In this document: positions 1,379 through 63,471 of the stretch, one piece after another | How positions within the stretch are numbered: position 1 is the first letter of the stretch | Layout: each line of letters opens with the position of its first letter | Source of the DNA: an uncultured Ruminococcus sp. | GTDB taxonomy: Bacteria > Bacillota > Clostridia > Oscillospirales > Ruminococcaceae | Direction: 5' to 3' | Assembly: GCA_902788785.1 (NCBI GenBank) | Contig: CADALT010000001.1 | Coordinates: 325,238 to 389,237 of the forward strand | DNA: 64,000 nucleotides | Notes under the pieces: generated by a model | Seen by the model: the letters and a program-made list of their open reading frames with translations, nothing else | Database searches by the model: none | What the model was told of the DNA's origin: nothing | Program-made: the position numbers and the translations under genes

Positions 1379-2167
1379 TCATATGCGCAAGCTTTCCTTT
1401 TTATGCGCATCAGCCTCTATGCAGCTGAAATATCTGTAGAACTCATCTCTGTATTTGAAGAATATCCTGTCCGAAAACTCCAGTATGAAATCCTTATTCG
1501 TAGGCTTGCCAAGTTCGAGGAATGAGCCGAGAAAGAATTCGCTGTCCTTTTCGTTCTCGTATTTCTGATAAACATAATCGACATATCTTCTCACAGCATT
1601 GTCGATACTTGCCTGCGTCGAACCGTTTATCCTTGAAAGATACGGATAGATATCCTTTCTCAATGAAATGTATTTGCCTTCGGTGAAAAGTACATATTTA
1701 ACAGCTTCGACCACATAAAAAAGTCCCGATTTGCAATGTGATGATGAAAAACTGTTTGCCTTGTCGTATACCAGTTTGTTTATACGTTCTCTGAATACTT
1801 TCGCTTTGATCTTGGCGGCTTTGCAGAACATACGTATATACCTTTCCGCAGCTGTCTGATGCTCTGTCGTAAATGTAAAATGCTTTAATCCCAGGTCCTG
1901 CAGCTCCTTAACACTGCTGCTTCTTTCCGAAGGAAAAACAACGAGCATATCTTCCACCAAGCCGACTGCTTCACGCAATACATCCATATCACAATGTTCA
2001 AGAGAACATACCACGAGGTCGGGAGCGTAATTATCTGTATAAAACTGGACCGAAGCGCTGGTACAGCCACAGGTATGTATCGTAAAATCGTTCTTGAGTC
2101 TGTCGATAAGTTCATTGAAACTCTCATCAAGTGAACCTATGAACAATAGTGAGTGTTTAACTAACAT
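1379..2167 (-). CDS. Spo0A C-terminal-domain-like DNA-binding protein with degenerate receiver-like N-terminus
   Basis: 262 aa. The C-terminal HCKSGLFYVVEAVKYV...IYPYLSRINGSTQASIDNAVRRYVDYVY...GKPTNKDFILEFSDRI aligns by eye to Spo0A_C (HIKGYLYLREAI...[28 protein letters not shown]...KPTNSEFIAMVADKL). The N-terminus is REC-like, but the DLVVCSLEHCD segment has Ser where the phospho-acceptor Asp is expected. Confidence 0.6.
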   Translation of the reverse strand: MLVKHSLLFIGSLDESFNELIDRLKNDFTIHTCGCTSASVQFYTDNYAPDLVVCSLEHCDMDVLREAVGLVEDMLVVFPSERSSSVKELQDLGLKHFTFTTEHQTAAERYIRMFCKAAKIKAKVFRERINKLVYDKANSFSSSHCKSGLFYVVEAVKYVLFTEGKYISLRKDIYPYLSRINGSTQASIDNAVRRYVDYVYQKYENEKDSEFFLGSFLELGKPTNKDFILEFSDRIFFKYRDEFYRYFSCIEADAHKKESLRI

Positions 2168-2525
2168 ACTGCTCTCCTTTCAAAAATGATATGCCGTATC
2201 CATCAGATGTAATATCAGGCAAGGTGCTGCAGCCGACACCTGCATCCGATGAAGCAAAAGCTTTTGTCATATCTATCATGCAATGTATATTATATCAAAG
2301 AATTACGGATAAATCAAGTATTTCCATAAAAATTTAACTAAAGATAAACCCCACACCTTTGATGTCAATTATGTGAATTTATTATGCCGATATTATTAAC
2401 GTTATTGGCATTATTTGGGTATTAGATTGAATTGGCAACATATCTTACACTAAGTCGATCAAAATGAATAACTTAAAATGTTATCGGGAAAAATCTATTT
2501 GAAAATAAAAGACAGGAGTGTAAGG

Positions 2526-3296
2526 ATGCAATATAACAAAGTTGAAATAAGCGGTGTAAACACAGGTCAGCTAAAGGTGCTCAGCGAGAAAGAAAAGCAG
2601 GAACTTCTAAAACGTGCCCGAAACAACGACAAGACAGCCCGGGAAGAACTCATAAACGGCAATCTAAGGCTGGTACTCAGCGTACTGCAAAGGTTCTCAT
2701 CACAGAAAGAAAACCCCGACGACCTGTTTCAGGTGGGTGTCGTGGGGCTTATAAAGGCTATAGATAATTTCGATGTGGAGCTCAACGTGCGCTTTTCGAC
2801 TTATGCTGTGCCCATGATACTGGGCGAGATAAAGCGCTATATGCGTGATTACCGACCCATAAGAGTGAGCCGTTCGATGCGTGACCTGGCATACAAAGCC
2901 ATGCAGGCAAAGGAGACATTTACTGCCAAAAATCAGCGTGAACCCACGGTAGATGAGATAGCTGCCGACATAGGCGAGAAACGCAGTGACATCGTGACTG
3001 CACTGGAGTCGGTGGTGGACCCCATATCTATCTACGAACCTGTATACTCCGAGGGCGGAGATTCGCTTTATCTTGTTGACCAGATATGCGATAGTGCCGA
3101 TGACAGAAGCTGGCTGGAAGAACTCACCATGAAAGAAGCCATACACGACCTGAAAGACCGTGAGAAAAACATTCTCTATCTTCGCTTTTTCAAAGGTCAC
3201 ACACAGGTGGAGGTAGCAAGAGAGATAGGCATATCTCAGGCGCAGGTATCAAGACTGGAAAAAAGCGCACTGGATAAGATAAAATCTCAGCTTTAA
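2526..3296 (+). CDS. sigG: Sporulation sigma factor SigG (SigF/G family)
   Basis: MQYNKVEISGVNTGQLKVL...NGNLRLVLSVLQRF...DLFQVGVVGLIKAIDNFD...STYAVPMILGEIKRYMRD..PIRVSRS...ISQAQVSRLEK closely follows B. subtilis SigG. The ATG at 2526 is preceded by aggagtg. The upstream ATG at 2478 is rejected. Confidence 0.9.
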   Translation: MQYNKVEISGVNTGQLKVLSEKEKQELLKRARNNDKTAREELINGNLRLVLSVLQRFSSQKENPDDLFQVGVVGLIKAIDNFDVELNVRFSTYAVPMILGEIKRYMRDYRPIRVSRSMRDLAYKAMQAKETFTAKNQREPTVDEIAADIGEKRSDIVTALESVVDPISIYEPVYSEGGDSLYLVDQICDSADDRSWLEELTMKEAIHDLKDREKNILYLRFFKGHTQVEVAREIGISQAQVSRLEKSALDKIKSQL

Positions 3297-3311
3297 TTTT
3301 TTATCATAAAA

Positions 3312-3343
3312 ATACCGATGCAGACACGATACTGCATCGGTAT
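3312..3343. terminator. Bidirectional rho-independent terminator between sigG (+) and the NAD operon (-)
   Basis: 12-bp perfect stem ataccgatgcag / ctgcatcggtat, flanked by an A-run upstream and a T-run downstream. Confidence 0.8.
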
Positions 3344-3348
3344 CATCT

Positions 3349-4140
3349 TTATTTGAAAGCTTCGGCAAAGGCTTTATAGTTTTTGCCATCGGTGCTTCCG
3401 TATACAGCGAAGCATACCTCATCGAAAGCCCTGCCCAGCCCCTCATCTATCAGCACTTTGCGAAAACACTCTGCCACCTCATCGGGTTTATTGCCGAACG
3501 CACCGCAGCCCCATGCACCGAGTATCAGGTTTTTATGACCATGTTCCTCCGCAATGCGCAGAACTATCCTTATCCTTCGCAGGAAAGTTTCTTCTATAGT
3601 CTGTTTTGATGCGATGAAAGCTGCACCGTATCTGTTCGGGGCAGGTACGGTTATAACAGCTGCCTGAAAGGGTTCTTGCAGCAGTTCGAGATCTTTGCTG
3701 CGAAACACACAGACCTCGGGAGAATAGAGCATATAGTCTGATTCTACCGTACTGAGATGGGTGTTATTATAGCGGTACATCTCGGCAGCTTTATCGGAAT
3801 GTATCGAAGCATAGAGCGTACTGCATCTGCACAGTGACTCTTCCTGGGTATTTGCGCCCAACATAAATCCGCCGCCTGCTTTATGGGCATTGGCAAAGTT
3901 CATGACATACGGACGTTCATACCGTGAGGCTGCCAAAAACGAATCCTCATTGGTGACAATTATGCGGCACATATCGCCCTTCGGGACGGGACGCTTTATA
4001 AGCTCACCACCTTTTTCGGGAGTGCAGACCTCGACTTTATCAAAGGGCGCACCCTTCAGTTTTACTTCTTTGCCGGCGATGGTATACGAACCTTTCTCTG
4101 TTATCTTTATTGTCTCCTTGGCTGCCGAAATATTGTTCAT
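3349..4140 (-). CDS. Bacterial-type poly(ADP-ribose) glycohydrolase-like macrodomain protein (TIGR02452/DUF2263-like)
   Basis: 263 aa. NFANAHKAGGGFMLGANTQEESLCR matches the PARG signature GGG-X6-8-QEE. GGAGG lies 8 nt upstream of the ATG. Confidence 0.7.
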   Translation of the reverse strand: MNNISAAKETIKITEKGSYTIAGKEVKLKGAPFDKVEVCTPEKGGELIKRPVPKGDMCRIIVTNEDSFLAASRYERPYVMNFANAHKAGGGFMLGANTQEESLCRCSTLYASIHSDKAAEMYRYNNTHLSTVESDYMLYSPEVCVFRSKDLELLQEPFQAAVITVPAPNRYGAAFIASKQTIEETFLRRIRIVLRIAEEHGHKNLILGAWGCGAFGNKPDEVAECFRKVLIDEGLGRAFDEVCFAVYGSTDGKNYKAFAEAFK

Positions 4141-4155
4141 AGATCTGACCTCCGT

Positions 4156-5676
4156 TCAGAAAGTGCCGCCGTTCAGTCTGTTCCTGATATCCGCAAGCGT
4201 ATACTCCTTTATCAGCTTGCCGTCACGGAAAACGGGTTCAAGAAGATTTCCCTCGGGGATAGTACTGCCGACATACTCATCTTTATATGCAAGCTCACCG
4301 TCTTCATTGCGGTAAACATAGCACAGACCTTTCTGAGATTTTTTGAAGCCGCCTTCCTTCGGGTCTTTGAATATGGGGTACTCCTTGCCGCCTATCTCGG
4401 CATAGCAAGCCTTGATACAGCTGGAGAAAGTATCTCTTGTAAATGGTTTAAGGATAGTTGCTTTACCCTTGACCTCCCTGCCGTCCTCGGTCATCACCTT
4501 GATATCCTCATCTTCCTCTATGCAGTGCATCGAGAAAGAACCTACGCCCAGGGCAACGTTCGAGCAGGCAAAGCCGTTATTTTTCAGTATCTCATAGATC
4601 ATCTCGCAGCGCTGTACTGTGATGCTGTCACCGTAGATAGCTTTTACGTGAGGATCAAGCACCTTATAGCCCTTGCTGTTGACAGTTCCGCCGAACTGAT
4701 CCCAAAGCTTGAAGACTGTTTTTGTAACGACCTCAACGCAGTCGCCCGAATCGCCCCTCATCAGCATACAGCCGTTGTGCGCCATTATCTCATCGTGCAG
4801 ACGGGGCAGGATATTATCTATGACATTCCAGTAATCGTAGGAATCAAGCACTGCGGAAAAGCTTGTGTTGGGATAAAGCTCAGTGAGCATTTTTCTGAGG
4901 AAGGTCTCCTCATCGCCGTCAACTGCAAAATTCGAGCACATAACAAAGTGTTCTGTACTTACCGAGCCAAAGGCTACAGGTTCCTTTGTGCAGTCTGCGC
5001 CAAACATCTTTTCGAGGTAAGGTATAGCAGGTACGGTAGCGGTATTCTCGAAAGACATACACCAGCCTGCTGCCGCTTTCAGTGCCGCATCAAGCCCCTG
5101 ATCTCCTCTGAAATCGAAAGAGCCCAGTGCCTTGGAACGGGAGACCTCATCATCACAGGTAAGGTCGTAATACTTGTTGACTATCTCTCTGTAGGTCCTG
5201 CCCACGGTAGCTGTTATCTGGGGATACCAGAGTTCAGCGGAGATAAGGCTCTCCAGCGCCTGAGGCAGCCATGCAAAATCAGGGTGAGTATTGGTTATGC
5301 CGAACATAGGGACGTGTACGGGCACGAGTGTGCCTTCGGGCAGGGCAATTATCTCCAGAGGAAGATAACCAAGTCTGTGCAGAGCGACTACAGATGTCGT
5401 ATCGTATATTCCCTTTCCAAAGGAATTATCCAGCACACGCTTGTAATCTTCTACTATCTCATCCTCGGGCACCGAGAAGAAATTGTCATTGAAATAATCT
5501 ATGAGCCAGGTCTTGCAGAACATTTGCAGCCCGAACATTACCACCTTATCCCAGCGCCTGACACGGCTCATCCTGGGTGTATAATAAGACATGGACTTGG
5601 TCATCGCCTTATTTATCATATCCCTGTGGACTATCTTATAAAAATCGCACATAAACATTGGATTTATATTTTTCAT
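4156..5676 (-). CDS. Nicotinamide phosphoribosyltransferase family protein (NadV/NAMPT-like; Namat-type activity not excluded)
   Basis: 506 aa. N-terminal NPMFMCDFYKIVH and the overall length are typical of NAMPT/NadV. The start overlaps the upstream stop (ATGA). Confidence 0.85.
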   Translation of the reverse strand: MKNINPMFMCDFYKIVHRDMINKAMTKSMSYYTPRMSRVRRWDKVVMFGLQMFCKTWLIDYFNDNFFSVPEDEIVEDYKRVLDNSFGKGIYDTTSVVALHRLGYLPLEIIALPEGTLVPVHVPMFGITNTHPDFAWLPQALESLISAELWYPQITATVGRTYREIVNKYYDLTCDDEVSRSKALGSFDFRGDQGLDAALKAAAGWCMSFENTATVPAIPYLEKMFGADCTKEPVAFGSVSTEHFVMCSNFAVDGDEETFLRKMLTELYPNTSFSAVLDSYDYWNVIDNILPRLHDEIMAHNGCMLMRGDSGDCVEVVTKTVFKLWDQFGGTVNSKGYKVLDPHVKAIYGDSITVQRCEMIYEILKNNGFACSNVALGVGSFSMHCIEEDEDIKVMTEDGREVKGKATILKPFTRDTFSSCIKACYAEIGGKEYPIFKDPKEGGFKKSQKGLCYVYRNEDGELAYKDEYVGSTIPEGNLLEPVFRDGKLIKEYTLADIRNRLNGGTF

Positions 5677-6026
5677 GATCTTTCCTCCTCATTATAAGTG
5701 AAAATAACTTCTATAGTGCCGATGATATGCTCATTGAACTCATCGAGTTTCTCAGCCGGTATCCAGAGCTCCCGATGGTAGCTTCTGCCAACGACGTGTG
5801 TCTCATACTGTGAGCAATACTCATCATCGACCTCGAACCTGGTAACATGACCCTTGTGATCGGGAGTATCCTTTACATTCCATCTTTTAGCTATCTCACG
5901 GGCATATTTTTCATTAAGTACGGGATAGAAGATAGGCTGTTCGGGAAGTCTCGGCGGAAAAGCTTTATATCCGCTTTGTTTTATCAGATCAAGCTCTGCT
6001 GTACCCACAGGTCTGTACAAGATCAC
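5673..6026 (-). CDS. Conserved small protein of unknown function
   Basis: 117 aa (MILYRPVGTAELDLIKQSGYKAFPPRLPEQPIFYPVLNEKYA...). GTG start with AGGAGA 8 nt upstream. Its stop overlaps the NAMPT start. Confidence 0.6.
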   Translation of the reverse strand: MILYRPVGTAELDLIKQSGYKAFPPRLPEQPIFYPVLNEKYAREIAKRWNVKDTPDHKGHVTRFEVDDEYCSQYETHVVGRSYHRELWIPAEKLDEFNEHIIGTIEVIFTYNEEERS

Positions 6027-6048
6027 ATCATCATCTCCTTTTTACCTA

Positions 6049-6320
6049 TTATAAGCCGTAATCAAGCTTAGCTGCATATAAGATCGCTTCTGTTGTGAGG
6101 TCAACGCATTTTTCTATACCATAATGCGTTGATACCTGTCTCATACCTTTCTGTAAAGCCATGGAATAAAGTATCCGGAGTTCTTCCGGGGCTTTGCAAA
6201 ACTTGATACTGCGCTCGAAATTACTGTCCCAAATGGTTCTTACATCTTTTACGATGTGCTTTTCATCCGGCGCTCTAAAAAAGCTTTATCTATCAGTTCA
6301 TCACGTTTATTGTCTTCCAT
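6049..6320 (-). pseudogene. Small ORF (~90 aa if intact) split by a frameshift at a T6/A6 homopolymer
   Basis: The ATG at 6318..6320 has AAGGAG 8 nt upstream and gives MEDNKRDELIDKAFLERRMKSTS*. A second frame continues from the homopolymer at 6277..6282 as ...FFRAPDEKHIVKDVRTIWDSNFERSIKFCKAPEELRILYSMALQKGMRQVSTHYGIEKCVDLTTEAILYAAKLDYGL* and has no start codon of its own. Confidence 0.55.
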
Positions 6321-6339
6321 TTCAAACAATCTCCTTGCG

Positions 6340-7170
6340 CTACACTAAACAGTCTATGATATCAAGTATTGGATACTTTTCAGTATCAAGGGTACACAGC
6401 GAATTTGTTGTATATATTTTATTTATCATGCCGCATTCAAACAGCTTGCCCTCGCTGATGGAATTCTCGCAGTGGGTGAAGAACACGTTTATCTCGCCGC
6501 AGCCAAGCTCTTTAAGCTTTTGTGCGGAATAGAAAACTGTTCCGCCATAGGCACAAATATCATCTATGATGAATATACGCCTGCCCTTGGGATCATCACC
6601 GCTGACATCGAGACCAAGTATTTTTCCAGTTGCCCAGTCACGCTTTTTCATGCCAAAGCTCAGGTGTGCTGCTTTGAACATTCCTCCGTATCGTTTCATC
6701 GAGCCCTCATCGGGGAAGAAAAGCTGATCTTTTTCGGCATCGAATCCTGCACGCTCCATAGCCTTTTCGATATATGCCTTCGGAGAGATATTCTCGACCC
6801 TATCCAAAAGTGCAGCACCGACATTTGAATGTGCATCTATGACCTGCACCTTATCAAATCCCATGGAATTTATAAAGCGGCAGAAATATTTCAGTGTAAA
6901 CACCTCAGATGCTTCATGCACTCTGTCCATTCTTGCATTGGGGAGATAGGGCATGAACAGACCAAACTGTGCACACGGGAAACTCTCTTTAAGAGAAGAT
7001 ACCATATAATAAAGCTGCATCTGTTCGGTTTCATCGCCATATGTCCAGATAAAACCGATATGTTCGGGAGTATTGCCGGGCAGAGTCAGATCTATTTTGA
7101 AGGTACCATCTGGATATTTCGTCACAGCGGGGGTAATAATTTCGCCGCCGTCATATCTGTATCTAAGCAT
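6340..7170 (-). CDS. Ribose-phosphate pyrophosphokinase (Prs)-like protein, non-canonical N-terminus
   Basis: 276 aa. Prs-type motifs VQVIDAHSN and the PRPP loop RIFIIDDICAYGGT are present. The N-terminus MLRYRYDGGEIITPAVTKYPDG is unlike housekeeping Prs. The start shares a base with the upstream stop (TGATG). Confidence 0.7.
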   Translation of the reverse strand: MLRYRYDGGEIITPAVTKYPDGTFKIDLTLPGNTPEHIGFIWTYGDETEQMQLYYMVSSLKESFPCAQFGLFMPYLPNARMDRVHEASEVFTLKYFCRFINSMGFDKVQVIDAHSNVGAALLDRVENISPKAYIEKAMERAGFDAEKDQLFFPDEGSMKRYGGMFKAAHLSFGMKKRDWATGKILGLDVSGDDPKGRRIFIIDDICAYGGTVFYSAQKLKELGCGEINVFFTHCENSISEGKLFECGMINKIYTTNSLCTLDTEKYPILDIIDCLV

Positions 7171-7718
7171 CAGTCAACCTGCCTTTCTATCTTCATCTGG
7201 CAAACAGCCATGGCGCTGAGGGCATTTTCGTGGCTTTCGGGAGTTACACCTGCACAGCAAGCGCTGTTGATAACTATGGGCACCTCCGGGAACGCAGCCT
7301 TTGTCAGCATAGCGTTGGAAATAACGCAGATATCGGTGCAAACGCCAATAAATTCGATCTCATCTATACTGCGGCCTGCGGCAGCTGCCCTTATCTTTTC
7401 GGGAAGATCTATCGCACCAAAGGTGACTTTTTCCACCATGATATCCTTGTCATCCTTGACCGCTGCTATCCTCTCATCGAGCTGCCAGCCGTCGCTGCCT
7501 TTGATACAGTGTACGACAGGAAGATTTTTGCCCTCCTGAGTATCAAGATAGTTTTCGCTATGTGTATCAAGAGTAAAGATCACAGGGGTATCGGGATATT
7601 CCGCTTTATAAGCTTTTATCCTTTCGGCTGCCCTTGCTGCGGCAGCGTCACATTCGACATTGCCGAGAGCGCCTGTTGTAAAATCTTTCTGCAAATCGAT
7701 AACTGCAAGTATCTTCAT
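7170..7718 (-). CDS. Isochorismatase-family cysteine hydrolase (nicotinamidase PncA-like)
   Basis: MKILAVIDLQKDF...LDTH...FIGVCTDICV shows the catalytic D/K/C pattern. The start is set at ATG 7718 (aaaggatggtagtcATG) rather than 7727. Confidence 0.8.
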   Translation of the reverse strand: MKILAVIDLQKDFTTGALGNVECDAAAARAAERIKAYKAEYPDTPVIFTLDTHSENYLDTQEGKNLPVVHCIKGSDGWQLDERIAAVKDDKDIMVEKVTFGAIDLPEKIRAAAAGRSIDEIEFIGVCTDICVISNAMLTKAAFPEVPIVINSACCAGVTPESHENALSAMAVCQMKIERQVD

Positions 7719-7773
7719 GACTACCATCCTTTCAGTCTTTGTAACTTTTAGTTACTATCTTTTTGTTGCTATC

Positions 7774-7802
7774 ATTATAACACACCGCAGTACATATGTC
7801 AA
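7774..7802 (-). promoter_or_regulatory. Consensus sigmaA promoter of the NAD/ADPR operon
   Basis: Minus strand reads TTGACA (7797..7802), a 17-nt spacer, then TATAAT (7774..7779). Confidence 0.7.
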
Positions 7803-7850
7803 TATGTTGCATTTCACAAAGAGTACACAGCTATTTTACATTTAATTGTT

Positions 7851-7891
7851 TATAATAACAAAAGCAGCTATATATACAATACAGCTGCTTT
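7851..7891 (-). terminator. Rho-independent terminator after the PHP phosphatase gene
   Basis: Stem aaagcagct / agctgcttt, followed on the minus strand by UUUUGUUAUUAU. Confidence 0.7.
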
Positions 7892-7895
7892 AAAC

Positions 7896-8759
7896 CTATA
7901 TCTTAATGAATTCCGCCTGATGTTTTTTAAAAACTGCCGCATATCCGAAGCCTGCCGACTTTGCAAGTTCTACGCCATCGGTTATCCCTTTGCCAAGGTC
8001 GGAAGTGCGGTGGGCATCGGAACCGAATGTTATTATCTCGCCGCCAAGTTCACGGTAAAGCTTTACAAGCTCGAATGTCGGGAAAGTCTGCCCGTATTTC
8101 TGCCGCAGACCCGAGGTATTGACCTCAATGCCCTTTCCGTTTGAGATAAGTGTCTTGAAGATCGACCTTATCAACTCCTCATACTTTAAAATATCCACCG
8201 AAACATTATGTTCACCGCAGATATATCTTAAAGGATAAGTAAGGTGACCCAGCACATCGAATTTGCCCCATTTACACATATCCAGCATCTGCAAAAAGCA
8301 ATCCGTCAGCAGTTTATCCAACTGTTCGGCAGACATTTTGCTGTAATCGAGGTAGTAAAAATCATCACAGCCCGAATTCATATGATGAGAACCGATAATA
8401 AAGTCAAGCCTTGGATCGGCTGCCATCTTCTCTGCGCCCTCGGGATACTGCAGAGGCTGACCAAGTTCAACGCCTACTCTAAGATCAAGTCTGCCTGCAA
8501 ACTTTTCTTTCAGCCTTACCTGTTCGGCGATGCTGTTTTCCGCATACTCCCCTGCGCCGTACATCATAGCATCTGTAACATCCTGCTTATCTGTGAAATA
8601 ATGCTCGGTAGGATACCAGAAATTGCAGTCGCAATGATCGGTAAGTGCATAAACTTCAAGTCCGAGTTCTGCCGCTTTTTCGCACATAGCTTCCGCACTA
8701 TCCTCCGCATCGGGTGAATAGCTGCTGTGGGTGTGCATATCAAACAGTATCTTTTCCAT
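7896..8759 (-). CDS. PHP-domain phosphoesterase (histidinol-phosphatase HisJ family)
   Basis: 287 aa. DMHTHSSYSPDA...ALTDHCD...GSHH...FGSDAH are the PHP metal-binding motifs. Confidence 0.8.
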   Translation of the reverse strand: MEKILFDMHTHSSYSPDAEDSAEAMCEKAAELGLEVYALTDHCDCNFWYPTEHYFTDKQDVTDAMMYGAGEYAENSIAEQVRLKEKFAGRLDLRVGVELGQPLQYPEGAEKMAADPRLDFIIGSHHMNSGCDDFYYLDYSKMSAEQLDKLLTDCFLQMLDMCKWGKFDVLGHLTYPLRYICGEHNVSVDILKYEELIRSIFKTLISNGKGIEVNTSGLRQKYGQTFPTFELVKLYRELGGEIITFGSDAHRTSDLGKGITDGVELAKSAGFGYAAVFKKHQAEFIKI

Positions 8760-8812
8760 GGTTTATCCTTTCTATCAAAAATGGGAAGAGCCGCCGACTC
8801 TTCCCACAAAGA

Positions 8813-10168
8813 TCAGTTTTTCAGTGAATGCAGAGGTGCAGGTATCTGACCGCCACGGTTGATGAACTTGCTTGCAGACTCCTTCTTCAAAGGCATAACA
8901 GGTCCGCAGCCGAACAGGCCGCCCCAGTCAAGCTCCTCACCAACGTCCTTACCGATAGCAGGTATGACTCTTACTGCGGTAGTCTTATTATTTACCATGC
9001 CGATAGCAGCTTCATCTGCGATGATAGCCGAAAGTGTATCCGCAGGGGTATCACCGGGAACAACTATCATATCCAGACCGACAGAGCATACTGCCGTCAT
9101 AGCTTCGAGCTTTTCGATACACAGCGCACCGCTCTTTGCGGCAGCTATCATGCCTGCATCTTCGGATACAGGGATAAATGCGCCCGAGAGTCCGCCGATA
9201 CGTGAGCAAGCCATAACGCCGCCCTTCTTGACAGCATCGTTGAGCATTGCAAGGCACGCAGTTGTGCCGTGAGTACCGCACTTTTCAAGACCTATCTCCT
9301 CAAGGATATGAGCAACGGAGTCGCCCACAGCGGGAGTAGGTGCCAGAGAAAGGTCAACTATACCGAAAGGCACGCCGAGTCTCTCGGAAGCTATTGTGCC
9401 CACCAACTGACCAACTCTTGTGATCTTATAGGATATCTCTTTGATAACATCAGCAATACCTGTGATATCAGCATCGGGATATTTTTTGAGTGCAGCTCTC
9501 ACAACGCCGGGGCCCGAAACGCCGACATTTATCATGCAGTCAGGTTCGCCAACGCCGTGGAAAGCACCTGCCATAAATGGGTTATCCTCAACAGCATTGC
9601 AGAATACGACCAGCTTCGCTGCACCAAAGCAAGCGGAGTCGATGGTCTTTTCAGCGCACTCTCTTATGATGCCGCCCATGAGCTTAACAGCATCAAGGTT
9701 GATACCTGTTTTTGTTGAACCGATATTAACGGAAGAACATACTCTCTCCGTAGTAGCCAGTGCCTCGGGAATAGACTTGATAAGCTCTATATCACCTGCG
9801 GAGAAGCCCTTGGGAACAAGCGCAGTATATCCGCCGATGAGGTTAACGCCAACATCTTTTGCGGCTCTGTCCATAGCGTGCGCAAACTTAACAGGTGAAC
9901 CCTTGCAGGCTGCTGACACGATAGCTATGGGTGTTACGGAGATACGCTTATTGATGATCGGGATACCCAGTTCCTTCTCGATCTGCTCACCGACCTTAAC
10001 AAGATCCTTAGCCTTAGTAGTGATCTTAGTGTAGACTTTCTCGCAAGCCTTGTCGATATCGCTGTCGATACAATCGAGCAGAGAAATACCCATTGTTATA
10101 GTACGTATGTCAAGACAATCGTCCTGTATCATACGGATGGTTTCAAGAATATCATATACATTTATCAT
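8813..10168 (-). CDS. UPF0210 / PFL-like family protein (DUF711)
   Basis: 451 aa. [33 protein letters not shown] is the characteristic N-terminus. It is paired with the upstream ACT protein, as in other Firmicutes. Confidence 0.85.
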
Positions 10169-60743: not shown

Positions 60744-60993
60744 AAACAAAAACAGCCCCGCCCCTTAATATGGGACGAAGCTGATGACTCCGTGATACCA
60801 CCCAAATTGACCGTGTAATACTCTAAGCACAACACAGCCCACTCGACATCTTTAACGCAGACATACGTCACTGTTTTCACAGTGCAAGCTCAGGTCAGCC
60901 ACCGCTGCTCAGACAGGAGCTTTCACCGACCGCTCCCTCTCTGTTAGTCCTCACCCTGCGGATAATTCCGTCACAGCATTTACATATACATTT
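60744..60993 (-). ncRNA. T-box riboswitch leader, probable alanine (GCU) specifier
   Basis: The minus strand carries AGAGAGGGAGCGGUCGGUGAAAGCUCC (stem I distal region). A candidate specifier GCU lies at 60897..60899 in ..GGUGGCUGACCUG.. The T-box sequence AAUUUGGGUGGUAUCACGG is at 60790..60808. A 12-bp terminator CAGCUUCGUCCC/GGGGCGGGGCUG plus UUUUUGUUU spans 60744..60783. Confidence 0.8.
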
Positions 60994-63371: not shown

Positions 63372-63382
63372 TCTAAAAACAG

Positions 63383-63471
63383 CGCAGATGGAGAGATTTG
63401 AACTCTCGCGACGGTATTCCCGCCCTACCGCATTTCGAGTGCGGACCCTTCAGCCACTTGGGTACATCTGC
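63383..63471 (-). tRNA. tRNA-Ser (anticodon CGA)
   Basis: Folded by hand into an 89-nt cloverleaf. Acceptor GCAGAUG/CAUCUGC. 3-bp D stem CCC/GGG. Anticodon stem CCGCA/UGCGG with loop CU-CGA-AA. Long variable arm. T arm GAGAG-UUCAAAU-CUCUC. Discriminator G. CCA is not encoded. Confidence 0.9.

Follow-up and report, generated by a model that had tools for sequence, protein, structure and literature searches.

NAD+ depletion and reconstitution form a central front of the conflict between bacteria and phages, and since 2024 three reconstitution pathways (NARP1 to NARP3) and two add-ons to NARP1 have been described. In canonical NARP1 the Prs-fold enzyme Adps, an ADP-ribose (ADPR) pyrophosphokinase, makes ADPR pyrophosphate (ADPR-PP), and the NAMPT-fold transferase Namat joins this product to nicotinamide to give NAD+. 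The pathway is known from the phages SPbetaL1, Bas63 and ICP1, and from the chromosome of Paenibacillus foliorum (PMC12774641). NARP1 on chromosomes, outside prophages, has been reported already, and activity was demonstrated for one bacterial system (PMC12774641). One add-on, NARP1-AP of Vibrio phage Gary, consists of Adps, the macrodomain phosphatase Adpp and Namat, with Adpp acting on ADPR-1''-phosphate. In the other, the RyDEP-assisted NARP1 of mycobacteriophage DyoEdafos, the RyDEP glycosidase acts on 2'/3'-cyclic ADPR (2'/3'-cADPR).

Here we analyse an operon at positions 3349 to 7802 of a 64-kb stretch of DNA from an uncultured Ruminococcus sp. (contig CADALT010000001.1; the whole stretch is called the window below). 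It comprises five intact genes and one frameshifted gene, all on the minus strand, between a promoter that matches the consensus at 12 of 12 positions and a strong hairpin. A preliminary description of the window had read the operon as a module that recycles ADPR to NAD+, in the manner of phage NARP1, rather than as plain PRPP-dependent salvage. We consider it somewhat more probable than otherwise that the operon is a chromosomal relative of NARP1 that runs through the deamidated (nicotinate) branch. This proposal draws on homology, conserved catalytic residues, pocket substitutions and gene linkage, from which every substrate and product named for the operon is predicted. In the direction of transcription, the genes are:

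7170..7727, minus strand: PncA-type nicotinamidase of the isochorismatase fold (185 amino acids; PF00857, E 1.8e-24)
6340..7170, minus strand: Adps-like protein of the Prs fold, predicted ADPR pyrophosphokinase (276 amino acids)
6049..6320, minus strand: frameshifted orphan open reading frame (ORF) of about 90 amino acids, a pseudogene with its own AAGGAG ribosome-binding site
5673..6026, minus strand: p117, a protein resembling a minimal ADP-ribosyltransferase fold (117 amino acids, GTG start)
4156..5676, minus strand: Namat-like transferase of the NAMPT fold with a remodelled pyridine pocket (506 amino acids)
3349..4140, minus strand: macrodomain protein of the bacterial poly(ADP-ribose) glycohydrolase (PARG) type (PARG_cat_microb, PF10021/TIGR02452; 263 amino acids)

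The Adps-like and Namat-like enzymes

The Adps-like protein belongs to the phage Adps clade, apart from cellular Prs, as judged by profile scores and pairwise identity. It scored 212.7 bits against phrog_619 and 82.6 bits against TIGR01251 (cut-off 113), and on the Prs equivalog models it reached 32-66 bits against cut-offs of about 300-540, so that it lies below every Prs cut-off. Its identity is 41-45% to SPbetaL1 Adps (E 2e-42), which has been validated biochemically as a producer of ADPR-PP, and 22% to E. coli Prs. It lacks the N-terminal 20 or so residues of E. coli Prs and ends shortly past the TTNSL motif, where the E. coli enzyme runs about 25 residues further; loss of the Prs C-terminal alpha11-alpha12 is a stated feature of Adps (PMC13586617). 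Neither the family score nor the full N- and C-terminal regions of a housekeeping Prs were therefore found. The loop for phosphoribosyl pyrophosphate (PRPP), IIDDICAYGGT, is present, so that the earlier observation of a kept PRPP loop behind a non-housekeeping N-terminus stands. According to a published survey, Namat is a neighbour of 97% of Adps-clade genes but not of bacterial prs genes. A tblastn search found no canonical prs in the 64-kb window.

The protein keeps R80, H114, D154, the catalytic-loop Lys (in GMKKRD) and D203/D204. The aligned reference sites are ICP1 K185 and SPbetaL1 K162 for the catalytic Lys, and R87, H121, D161, D212 and D213 for the acceptor residues. Because all of these are common to Prs too, they do not settle the substrate. 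Residues that might tell Adps from Prs acceptor specificity were sought and rejected, the published contacts being common to Prs; one of these contacts, ICP1 F92, is not conserved even in the validated SPbetaL1 Adps.

The Namat-like protein is of the Namat (NARP1) lineage and not a housekeeping NadV. Its best solved-structure match was SPbetaL1 Namat (9W5X/9W5W, E 4e-109), with mammalian NAMPT at 1e-45. D11, Y13, R38, F187, R190, H243, R307 and D309 are kept, as are G379-S380-F381 and T413-R414-D415. For both members of the Prs-like/NAMPT-like pair, the profile and structure-match comparisons thus favour NARP1 over housekeeping Prs/NadV, as the preliminary description had suspected.

The pyridine pocket differs. 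N211, A213 and S240 stand for G213, D215 and A242 of SPbetaL1 Namat, three first-shell residues. In SPbetaL1, Asp215 hydrogen-bonds the amide of nicotinamide, and the D215A mutation lowers NAD+ formation 8.1-fold (PMC12774641). The equivalent residue of human NAMPT, Asp219, is described as setting substrate specificity, and D219S is listed as a change that switches the affinity for substrate (PMC7096376, PMC4919578); G217 and A244 of human NAMPT, at the two matching sites, are listed as positions of mutations that block inhibitor binding. A comparison of 127 distinct Namat homologues from 150 loci showed that the three positions co-vary. D215 is replaced by Ala (96 sequences) or Ser (7), A242 is Ser in 103/103 of these sequences, and G213 is replaced by Asn or Lys. 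The amide-binding Asp that would mark a Namat is therefore absent from all 103 distinct sequences of this clade. F189, R192, R306, D13 and Y15 are invariant in the 127 sequences, and the catalytic His is kept wherever displayed. The adenine-clamp residues R40 and F392 are retained as R38 and F381; R40 belongs to the selectivity-clamp loop, and an Arg aligns with it in 95/96 A-type sequences.

Loss of the amide-binding Asp makes it likely that the enzyme joins nicotinate to ADPR-PP, forming nicotinic acid adenine dinucleotide (NaAD), rather than nicotinamide to ADPR-PP, forming NAD+. We predict that it is a nicotinate:ADPR-PP transferase. On this point the prediction departs from the preliminary description, in which NAD+ was rebuilt directly from nicotinamide.

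The nicotinamidase and its conserved gene linkage

The isochorismatase-fold protein is a divergent PncA-type member. Its likely start is the second ATG, at 7718, which gives 182 amino acids. The catalytic residues D11/K100/C134 and the metal-binding residues D54/H56/H73 align with D10/K94/C133 and D52/H54/H71, respectively, of Pyrococcus horikoshii PncA. Its six best solved-structure matches were a 183-residue chain deposited as an isochorismatase and known or putative nicotinamidase/pyrazinamidases. The protein scored below the curated PncA equivalog (NF008623, 27.6 bits against a cut-off of 174) and matched at the level of the fold (PF00857).

The nicotinamidase is a core gene and the best-conserved partner in this Adps/Namat clade. 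The trio of nicotinamidase, Adps and Namat occurs in Ruminococcus, Lachnospiraceae, Acetatifactor, Paludibacteraceae, Mogibacterium and many gut phage contigs. In the related bacterial loci that were fetched, an isochorismatase-fold homologue lies directly upstream of Adps and Namat, except in an incomplete pair of fragments on two contigs and in Mogibacterium, where Adps matched in two overlapping pieces. The gut phage Phass-1 has the order nicotinamidase, Adps, Namat-like, one unknown gene, NadE, and a human faecal phage contig (L001) has Adps, Namat-like, Macro, NadE, nicotinamidase, all on one strand. Sorted by the residue at position 215, the loci carry the following partners:

Ala or Ser at 215 (114 loci): nicotinamidase 105, Adps 114, NadE 102, PF01661-type macrodomain 55
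Asp or Glu at 215 (38 loci): nicotinamidase 0, Adps 35, NadE 0, PF01661-type macrodomain 5

The linkage persists through changes of gene order, from nicotinamidase-Adps-Namat in bacteria and Phass-1 to Adps-Namat-Macro-NadE-nicotinamidase in the faecal contig, and it recurs in Phass-1 on a separate long branch of the tree. The nicotinamidase had earlier appeared puzzling, as a competitor for nicotinamide; with a homologue in 105 of the 114 loci of the clade, and with a route that would run through nicotinate, that puzzle is removed. No NadD-like adenylyltransferase was detected in loci L001-L163 with one query protein and one motif, which would leave the cassette complete for an ADPR-PP route and incomplete for a PRPP route.

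The pathway that we propose, as the simplest reading, has four steps. The PncA-type nicotinamidase would turn nicotinamide into nicotinate, and the Adps-like enzyme would pyrophosphorylate ADPR with ATP to ADPR-PP. The Namat-like enzyme would then couple nicotinate and ADPR-PP directly to NaAD, which the NAD synthetase NadE would amidate to NAD+. Phage cassettes include the gene for NadE; here a housekeeping gene presumably supplies it. Such a route would require no adenylyltransferase. In the literature searched, one-step formation of NaAD from nicotinate and ADPR-PP has not been described, and no paper joins NARP1 to PncA, NadE or nicotinate. A wider proposition, which we hold tentatively and at a little less than even, is that the Ala/Ser-type Namat-like enzymes are a new class of nicotinate:ADPR-PP transferases. 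Together with PncA, Adps and NadE they would make up a fourth NAD+ reconstitution pathway, a deamidated one, frequent in phage contigs from gut and rumen (95 IMG/VR loci among those fetched) and adopted by the chromosomes of Ruminococcus and other anaerobes, with the p117 family as a general factor of ADP-ribose metabolism that plugs into it.

Accessory genes, operon control and mobility

The last gene of the operon encodes a PARG-type macrodomain protein (PF10021, E 7e-33; TIGR02452, 190.9 bits against a cut-off of 50). Residues 6-262 of its 263 match Thermomonospora curvata PARG (3SIG, E 9e-44). The GGG-X6-8-QEE signature, already noticed in the preliminary description, is present as GGGFMLGANTQEE and aligns with that of the T. 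curvata protein (GGGF..GA..QEE), and the diphosphate-binding loop GAWGCGAFGN is conserved. None of the families that define NARP1-AP (PF14519, PF01661 or PF20016) matched this macrodomain, and PF10021 is not among the Pfam families of the published NARP1-AP survey. By analogy with Adpp and RyDEP, the PARG protein probably releases ADPR from ADP-ribose conjugates or from ribose-ribose linked molecules and so feeds the pathway.

Among the relatives examined, the window species alone has the PARG gene, the p117 gene and the small ORF; Ruminococcus albus and its relatives have nicotinamidase-Adps-Namat only. Conservation of the macrodomain in relatives had been set as a test of the earlier reading; PARG is absent from the closest ones, which makes its linkage lineage-specific, and a different macrodomain (PF01661) is found in 55 of the 114 related A/S-type loci. 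The idea that an ADPR-releasing accessory enzyme suits a recycling operon has precedents in NARP1-AP and RyDEP. A pattern scan of viral contigs found no PARG homologue near NARP1; PARG beside p117 was seen through the p117 search only.

p117 had no match in Pfam, NCBIfam, PHROGs or PADLOC. Its family nevertheless comprises 2159 representative clusters at E <= 0.001, and 38 positions are invariant among 38 sequences. Foldseek searches with the predicted model (pLDDT 92) gave consistent though weak-scoring matches to Tpt1/KptA, the RhsP2 toxin, CC0527 and DarT (probability 0.9-1.0, E 3.5e-3 to 7e-2, query-normalised TM-score 0.38-0.60), and the viral library gave a similar result. The invariant R5, T62 and E86, candidates for the R-S-E or H-Y-E triad of such enzymes, fall in regions predicted as three separate strands. 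In its predicted structure p117 thus resembles a minimal ADP-ribosyltransferase fold, corresponding to the NAD+-binding lobe.

Elsewhere, the p117 domain is fused to ADP-ribosylglycohydrolase (ARH), Macro, Nudix, ATP-grasp, GNAT, glyoxalase and TPR domains. Its neighbours in 104 surveyed loci included PARG (3), ARH (3, two adjacent and one about 2 kb away), Macro (1) and NadD (3). The three PARG-adjacent contigs (L179, at 5169-6567, L180 and L183) are 267-481 kb long and come from a viral collection; in each, no more than about 0.5 kb separates p117 from a PARG homologue upstream of it. On the one that was inspected (L179, 267 kb), p117 is fused to a GIY-YIG nuclease and lies near a Ro60/TROVE-vWA protein, a context suggestive of a connection with the repair or modification of nucleic acids. 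A second, independent NARP1 operon with p117, on a 537-kb metagenome contig (MDTC01206728.1; L252, at 1664-5724), consists of Adps, a canonical Asp-type Namat, p117, NrtR and a 2OG-Fe(II) oxygenase. There p117 starts at the final base of the stop codon of Namat. NrtR, which combines Nudix with a winged helix, regulates NAD genes in response to ADPR. A large serine recombinase is encoded nearby. In four contexts inspected by hand p117 stands alone among housekeeping genes, one copy adjoining nadD, which makes it unlikely to be toxic. We conclude from these contexts that p117 is a putative ADP-ribose/NAD+-handling protein that joined NARP1-type operons at least twice; in the window it would probably bind or convert another NAD+- or ADPR-derived molecule in the same cycle.

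Two further observations concern p117. In one Ruminococcus genome (L170, 5001-6592) a homologue lies directly upstream of nadD-yqeK, which encodes a nicotinate mononucleotide (NaMN) adenylyltransferase fused to an HD domain, in the conserved yhbY-nadD-rsfS cluster. In the window, a mini-ORF (ATG-ATG-ATG-TGA, 6023-6034) overlaps the p117 GTG start right after its AAGGAG; it may be due to chance or may affect initiation of p117.

The small ORF at 6049..6320 is a decaying, species-specific orphan pseudogene. Its intact form, about 90 amino acids long, is seen in a metagenome homologue (P0272). In the window copy the T run at 6282-6277 is one base short, T6 in place of the T7 that would preserve the frame, which produces a -1 shift. 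The allele of another strain (L003) has instead a 58-nt deletion between TTT[A/C]GAGCGC repeats; this indel (window 6271-6330 against L003 8885-8900) is bounded by the direct repeats TTTAGAGCGC and TTTCGAGCGC. Only two homologues were found among 5.8 billion proteins, one in a locus with the same operon arrangement (L172) and one on a 959-bp contig. The frameshift reported earlier is therefore real, and the accessory role then suggested for the ORF was rejected, both alleles being disrupted in different ways and only two homologues existing.

Three elements frame the operon:

7774..7802, minus strand: sigma-70 promoter TTGACA-17-TGTTATAAT, 12/12 consensus with a TG extension
7728..7773, minus strand: conserved 5' leader of 45 nt, with the inverted repeat GTAACTAAAAGTTAC at 7755-7741
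3311..3344, bidirectional, no single strand: intrinsic terminator with a 13-bp stem that includes 6 G-C pairs

The arrangement of six co-directional genes from this promoter to the hairpin was borne out, one of the genes being the frameshifted one, and the coupled junctions of the preliminary description are read directly in the sequence. Between the nicotinamidase and Adps-like genes (GACTGATGCTT) the start overlaps the upstream stop in TGATG at 7170, and between p117 and the Namat-like gene (GATCATGAAA) the stop overlaps the next start in ATGA at 5676-5673. The Namat-like and PARG genes are separated by a 15-nt gap with GGAGG (TGA-ACGGAGGTCAGATCT-ATG). The terminator has a T run (TTTTTATGA) after the stem on the minus strand and scores on the plus strand as well; it is common to the operon and to a convergent sporulation-type sigma factor gene.

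The site at 7802-7774 was the only 12/12 promoter match in the 6.5 kb scanned (2500-9000). Both hexamers are unchanged in five Ruminococcus relatives, and the leader, from the -10 hexamer to the ribosome-binding site, hardly varies among Ruminococcus species whose coding regions share only about 70% identity. The DNA upstream of the -35 hexamer is not conserved among these species. Promoter and leader are thus conserved far better than the neighbouring non-coding DNA, which suggests a conserved regulatory site, and the inverted repeat GTAACTAAAAGTTAC could be a candidate operator for some regulator. A permissive Rfam search of 3000-8200 found no family in the leader and returned one chance snoRNA match. 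A riboswitch or other RNA element for the operon was rejected, the Rfam search of the whole window having given only two distant hits. These are ordinary, unrelated features on the minus strand, a T-box leader (60768-60983, 98.3 bits) and a tRNA-Ser(CGA) (63382-63471).

The flanking genes are of a housekeeping kind: rpsB, a Spo0A_C protein, the sigma factor, a PHP phosphatase, DUF711, an ACT protein and ackA. The Spo0A_C protein (1379-2167, minus strand, 262 amino acids) has a Spo0A C-terminal DNA-binding domain (PF08769), and a receiver domain was undetectable in its N-terminal 140 residues. The closest genomes are those of R. albus and related Ruminococcus species. Identical gene order in at least seven independent metagenome contigs of the same species shows that the operon is not an assembly artefact. 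Base composition gave no signal of horizontal transfer, the GC fraction of the operon (0.42-0.49) equalling that of its flanks, and PADLOC gave no meaningful defence or anti-defence label to the five proteins.

The situation in R. albus is different. There the sigma factor gene, which the window has intact (2478-3296), is interrupted at its YAVP codons by an insert of 6.1 to 8.6 kb that carries nicotinamidase, Adps and Namat (L009, L010, L011, L012 and L025). Detailed inspection covered the insert of strain KH2T6 (L012, 6633-13548). This insert additionally encodes an MFS transporter and a large serine recombinase, and about 25 bp of the target are repeated imperfectly at both of its ends. It resembles a skin-like intervening element. 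In the window species the module lies beside the intact sigma gene and has no recombinase. Taken together, the R. albus inserts and the phage cassettes show that the module travels on integrative elements and phages.

Alternative readings and comparison with described systems

Could the operon instead run canonical NARP1, with nicotinamide and ADPR-PP giving NAD+ and the nicotinamidase in a side role, such as supplying the Preiss-Handler pathway of the host or removing surplus nicotinamide, an inhibitor of NAD+-consuming enzymes? The clear membership of both enzymes in the Adps and Namat lineages, the activity of the chromosomal P. foliorum system on nicotinamide (PMC12774641) and the residual activity of D215A SPbetaL1 Namat are all compatible with this. 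We nevertheless regard it as unlikely, given that the amide-binding Asp and the two other pocket residues are replaced throughout the clade and that the nicotinamidase of the same operon would destroy the substrate. NadE, moreover, is present in 102 of 114 loci of the clade and in 0 of 38 canonical loci, and would have no role if NAD+ were made directly. Still less probable is a PRPP-dependent salvage pathway, in which the Prs-like protein would supply PRPP, the NAMPT-like protein would make NaMN or nicotinamide mononucleotide, and NadD and NadE of the host would finish the synthesis. A Prs-like protein that groups with phage Adps, below every Prs cut-off and lacking the Prs C-terminal regulatory region, speaks against it, as do the retained adenine-clamp residues R38 and F381, the published neighbourhoods of Adps and prs genes, and A/S-type cassettes that carry NadE with no adenylyltransferase found. 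Against these stand a score that just reaches NCBIfam NF006629, a 'nicotinate phosphoribosyltransferase' model (410 bits, cut-off 405), the ability of Namat enzymes to use PRPP in vitro, and the fact that PncA and NadE are the outer steps of the Preiss-Handler pathway; we think this alternative very improbable.

A third alternative concerns the accessory genes. p117 and PARG might form a writer/eraser module for ADP-ribosylation, regulatory or toxin-antitoxin-like, with the operon rebuilding the NAD+ that it consumes. This would agree with the predicted ADP-ribosyltransferase fold of p117, with the placing of its invariant R5, T62 and E86 in regions predicted as three different strands, and with its fusion or adjacency to three classes of ADP-ribose eraser (ARH, Macro and PARG). 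The fold matches are weak, however (best PDB E 3.5e-3; TM-score normalised to the query 0.42-0.60); only 13 of the 104 p117 loci have any probed partner nearby, the four copies of p117 whose surroundings were examined by hand are isolated among housekeeping genes, and the Namat-like gene separates p117 from PARG in the window. We judge such a module distinctly unlikely.

Several points also weigh against the nicotinate route that we favour. Nicotinate use is predicted from three pocket residues and gene linkage, and D215A SPbetaL1 Namat is still partly active with nicotinamide, so that an Ala enzyme could still use it. Recognition of ADPR-PP is not assured either, as the selectivity helix is altered. 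Its motif GS[FY]xxx[FY]xTRD is broken, GSF and TRD being 29 residues apart instead of the 5 of SPbetaL1, and SPbetaL1 Y396 is a Pro in the window, with a Phe one position on. The helix of the Ruminococcus Namat-like proteins contains an acidic stretch of about 14-19 residues (EEDEDIKVMTEDGREVKG..., codons 382-411, window 4444-4533), which adds to a 9-residue insertion common to the whole Ala-type clade. Since the A and S types make up a single clade, the linkage amounts to about two events (the clade and Phass-1), though it has been kept across wide divergence and changes of gene order. The sample is biased, two query proteins having served to collect the loci, and nine A/S-type loci have no nicotinamidase in the flank covered, at least three of them (L062, L074 and L075) with full 6-kb flanks. 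A tblastn search found no nadE in the 64-kb window, so the NadE step depends on a gene elsewhere, and the search for NadD was of limited sensitivity. The pathway roles of PARG and p117, which are absent from the closest relatives, are the weakest part of the proposal.

If nicotinate is the substrate, the operon would represent a further reconstitution pathway with a new enzymatic reaction, which would account for the nicotinamidase and NAD synthetase in some NARP1-like cassettes. A three-residue rule (SPbetaL1 positions 213, 215 and 242) would then split the genes now annotated 'nicotinamide phosphoribosyltransferase'. A chromosomal module that lies behind a strong, conserved promoter, and in sister species on a recombinase-bearing element, also bears on the use of NARP1 to bacteria, and p117 represents a large unannotated family tied to ADP-ribose metabolism.

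Compared with NARP1, the operon has the same pairing of a Prs-fold ADPR pyrophosphokinase with an adjacent NAMPT-fold transferase, and keeps the catalytic residues, the clamp-loop Arg and GSF...TRD. It differs in the three pocket residues (Asp215 to Ala, Ala242 to Ser, Gly213 to Asn), in the 24-residue insertion in the selectivity helix, in having the nicotinamidase as a fixed partner and, in most relatives, NadE as well, and in its predicted product, NaAD rather than NAD+. As in NARP1-AP and RyDEP-assisted NARP1, an ADP-ribose-handling accessory is encoded in or beside the operon and may turn an ADPR derivative into free ADPR for Adps; unlike in NARP1-AP, this accessory is a PARG-type PF10021 protein with the QEE signature and not a Poa1p-like phosphatase. 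The second accessory, p117, has no published counterpart in the literature searched.

The proposed route shares with the Preiss-Handler cycle (PncA, PncB, NadD, NadE) its first step, deamidation by PncA, and its last, amidation of NaAD by NadE. In between, PncB (with PRPP) and NadD (with ATP) would be replaced by Adps and a single transfer of nicotinate onto ADPR-PP, so that the ADP-ribose moiety would be reused rather than built anew. The macrodomain resembles the PARG proteins of T. curvata (3SIG) and Deinococcus radiodurans (5ZDA, E 4e-36) over its full length, in its signature and in its diphosphate loop; unlike these, it is encoded in an NAD-recycling operon, in a bacterium with no known PARP. 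The predicted fold of p117 appears to correspond to the NAD+-binding lobe of Tpt1/KptA, DUF952-like CC0527, DarT and Rhs toxins, but p117, unlike Tpt1/KptA, has only about 115 residues, no RNA-binding lobe and no sequence match to curated families. Published work already covers NARP1 on chromosomes and NARP1 supplemented by a macrodomain enzyme. New here are the linkage to the nicotinamidase, the remodelling of the pocket and the partnership with NadE, which on balance point, with moderate confidence, to an undescribed nicotinate variant.

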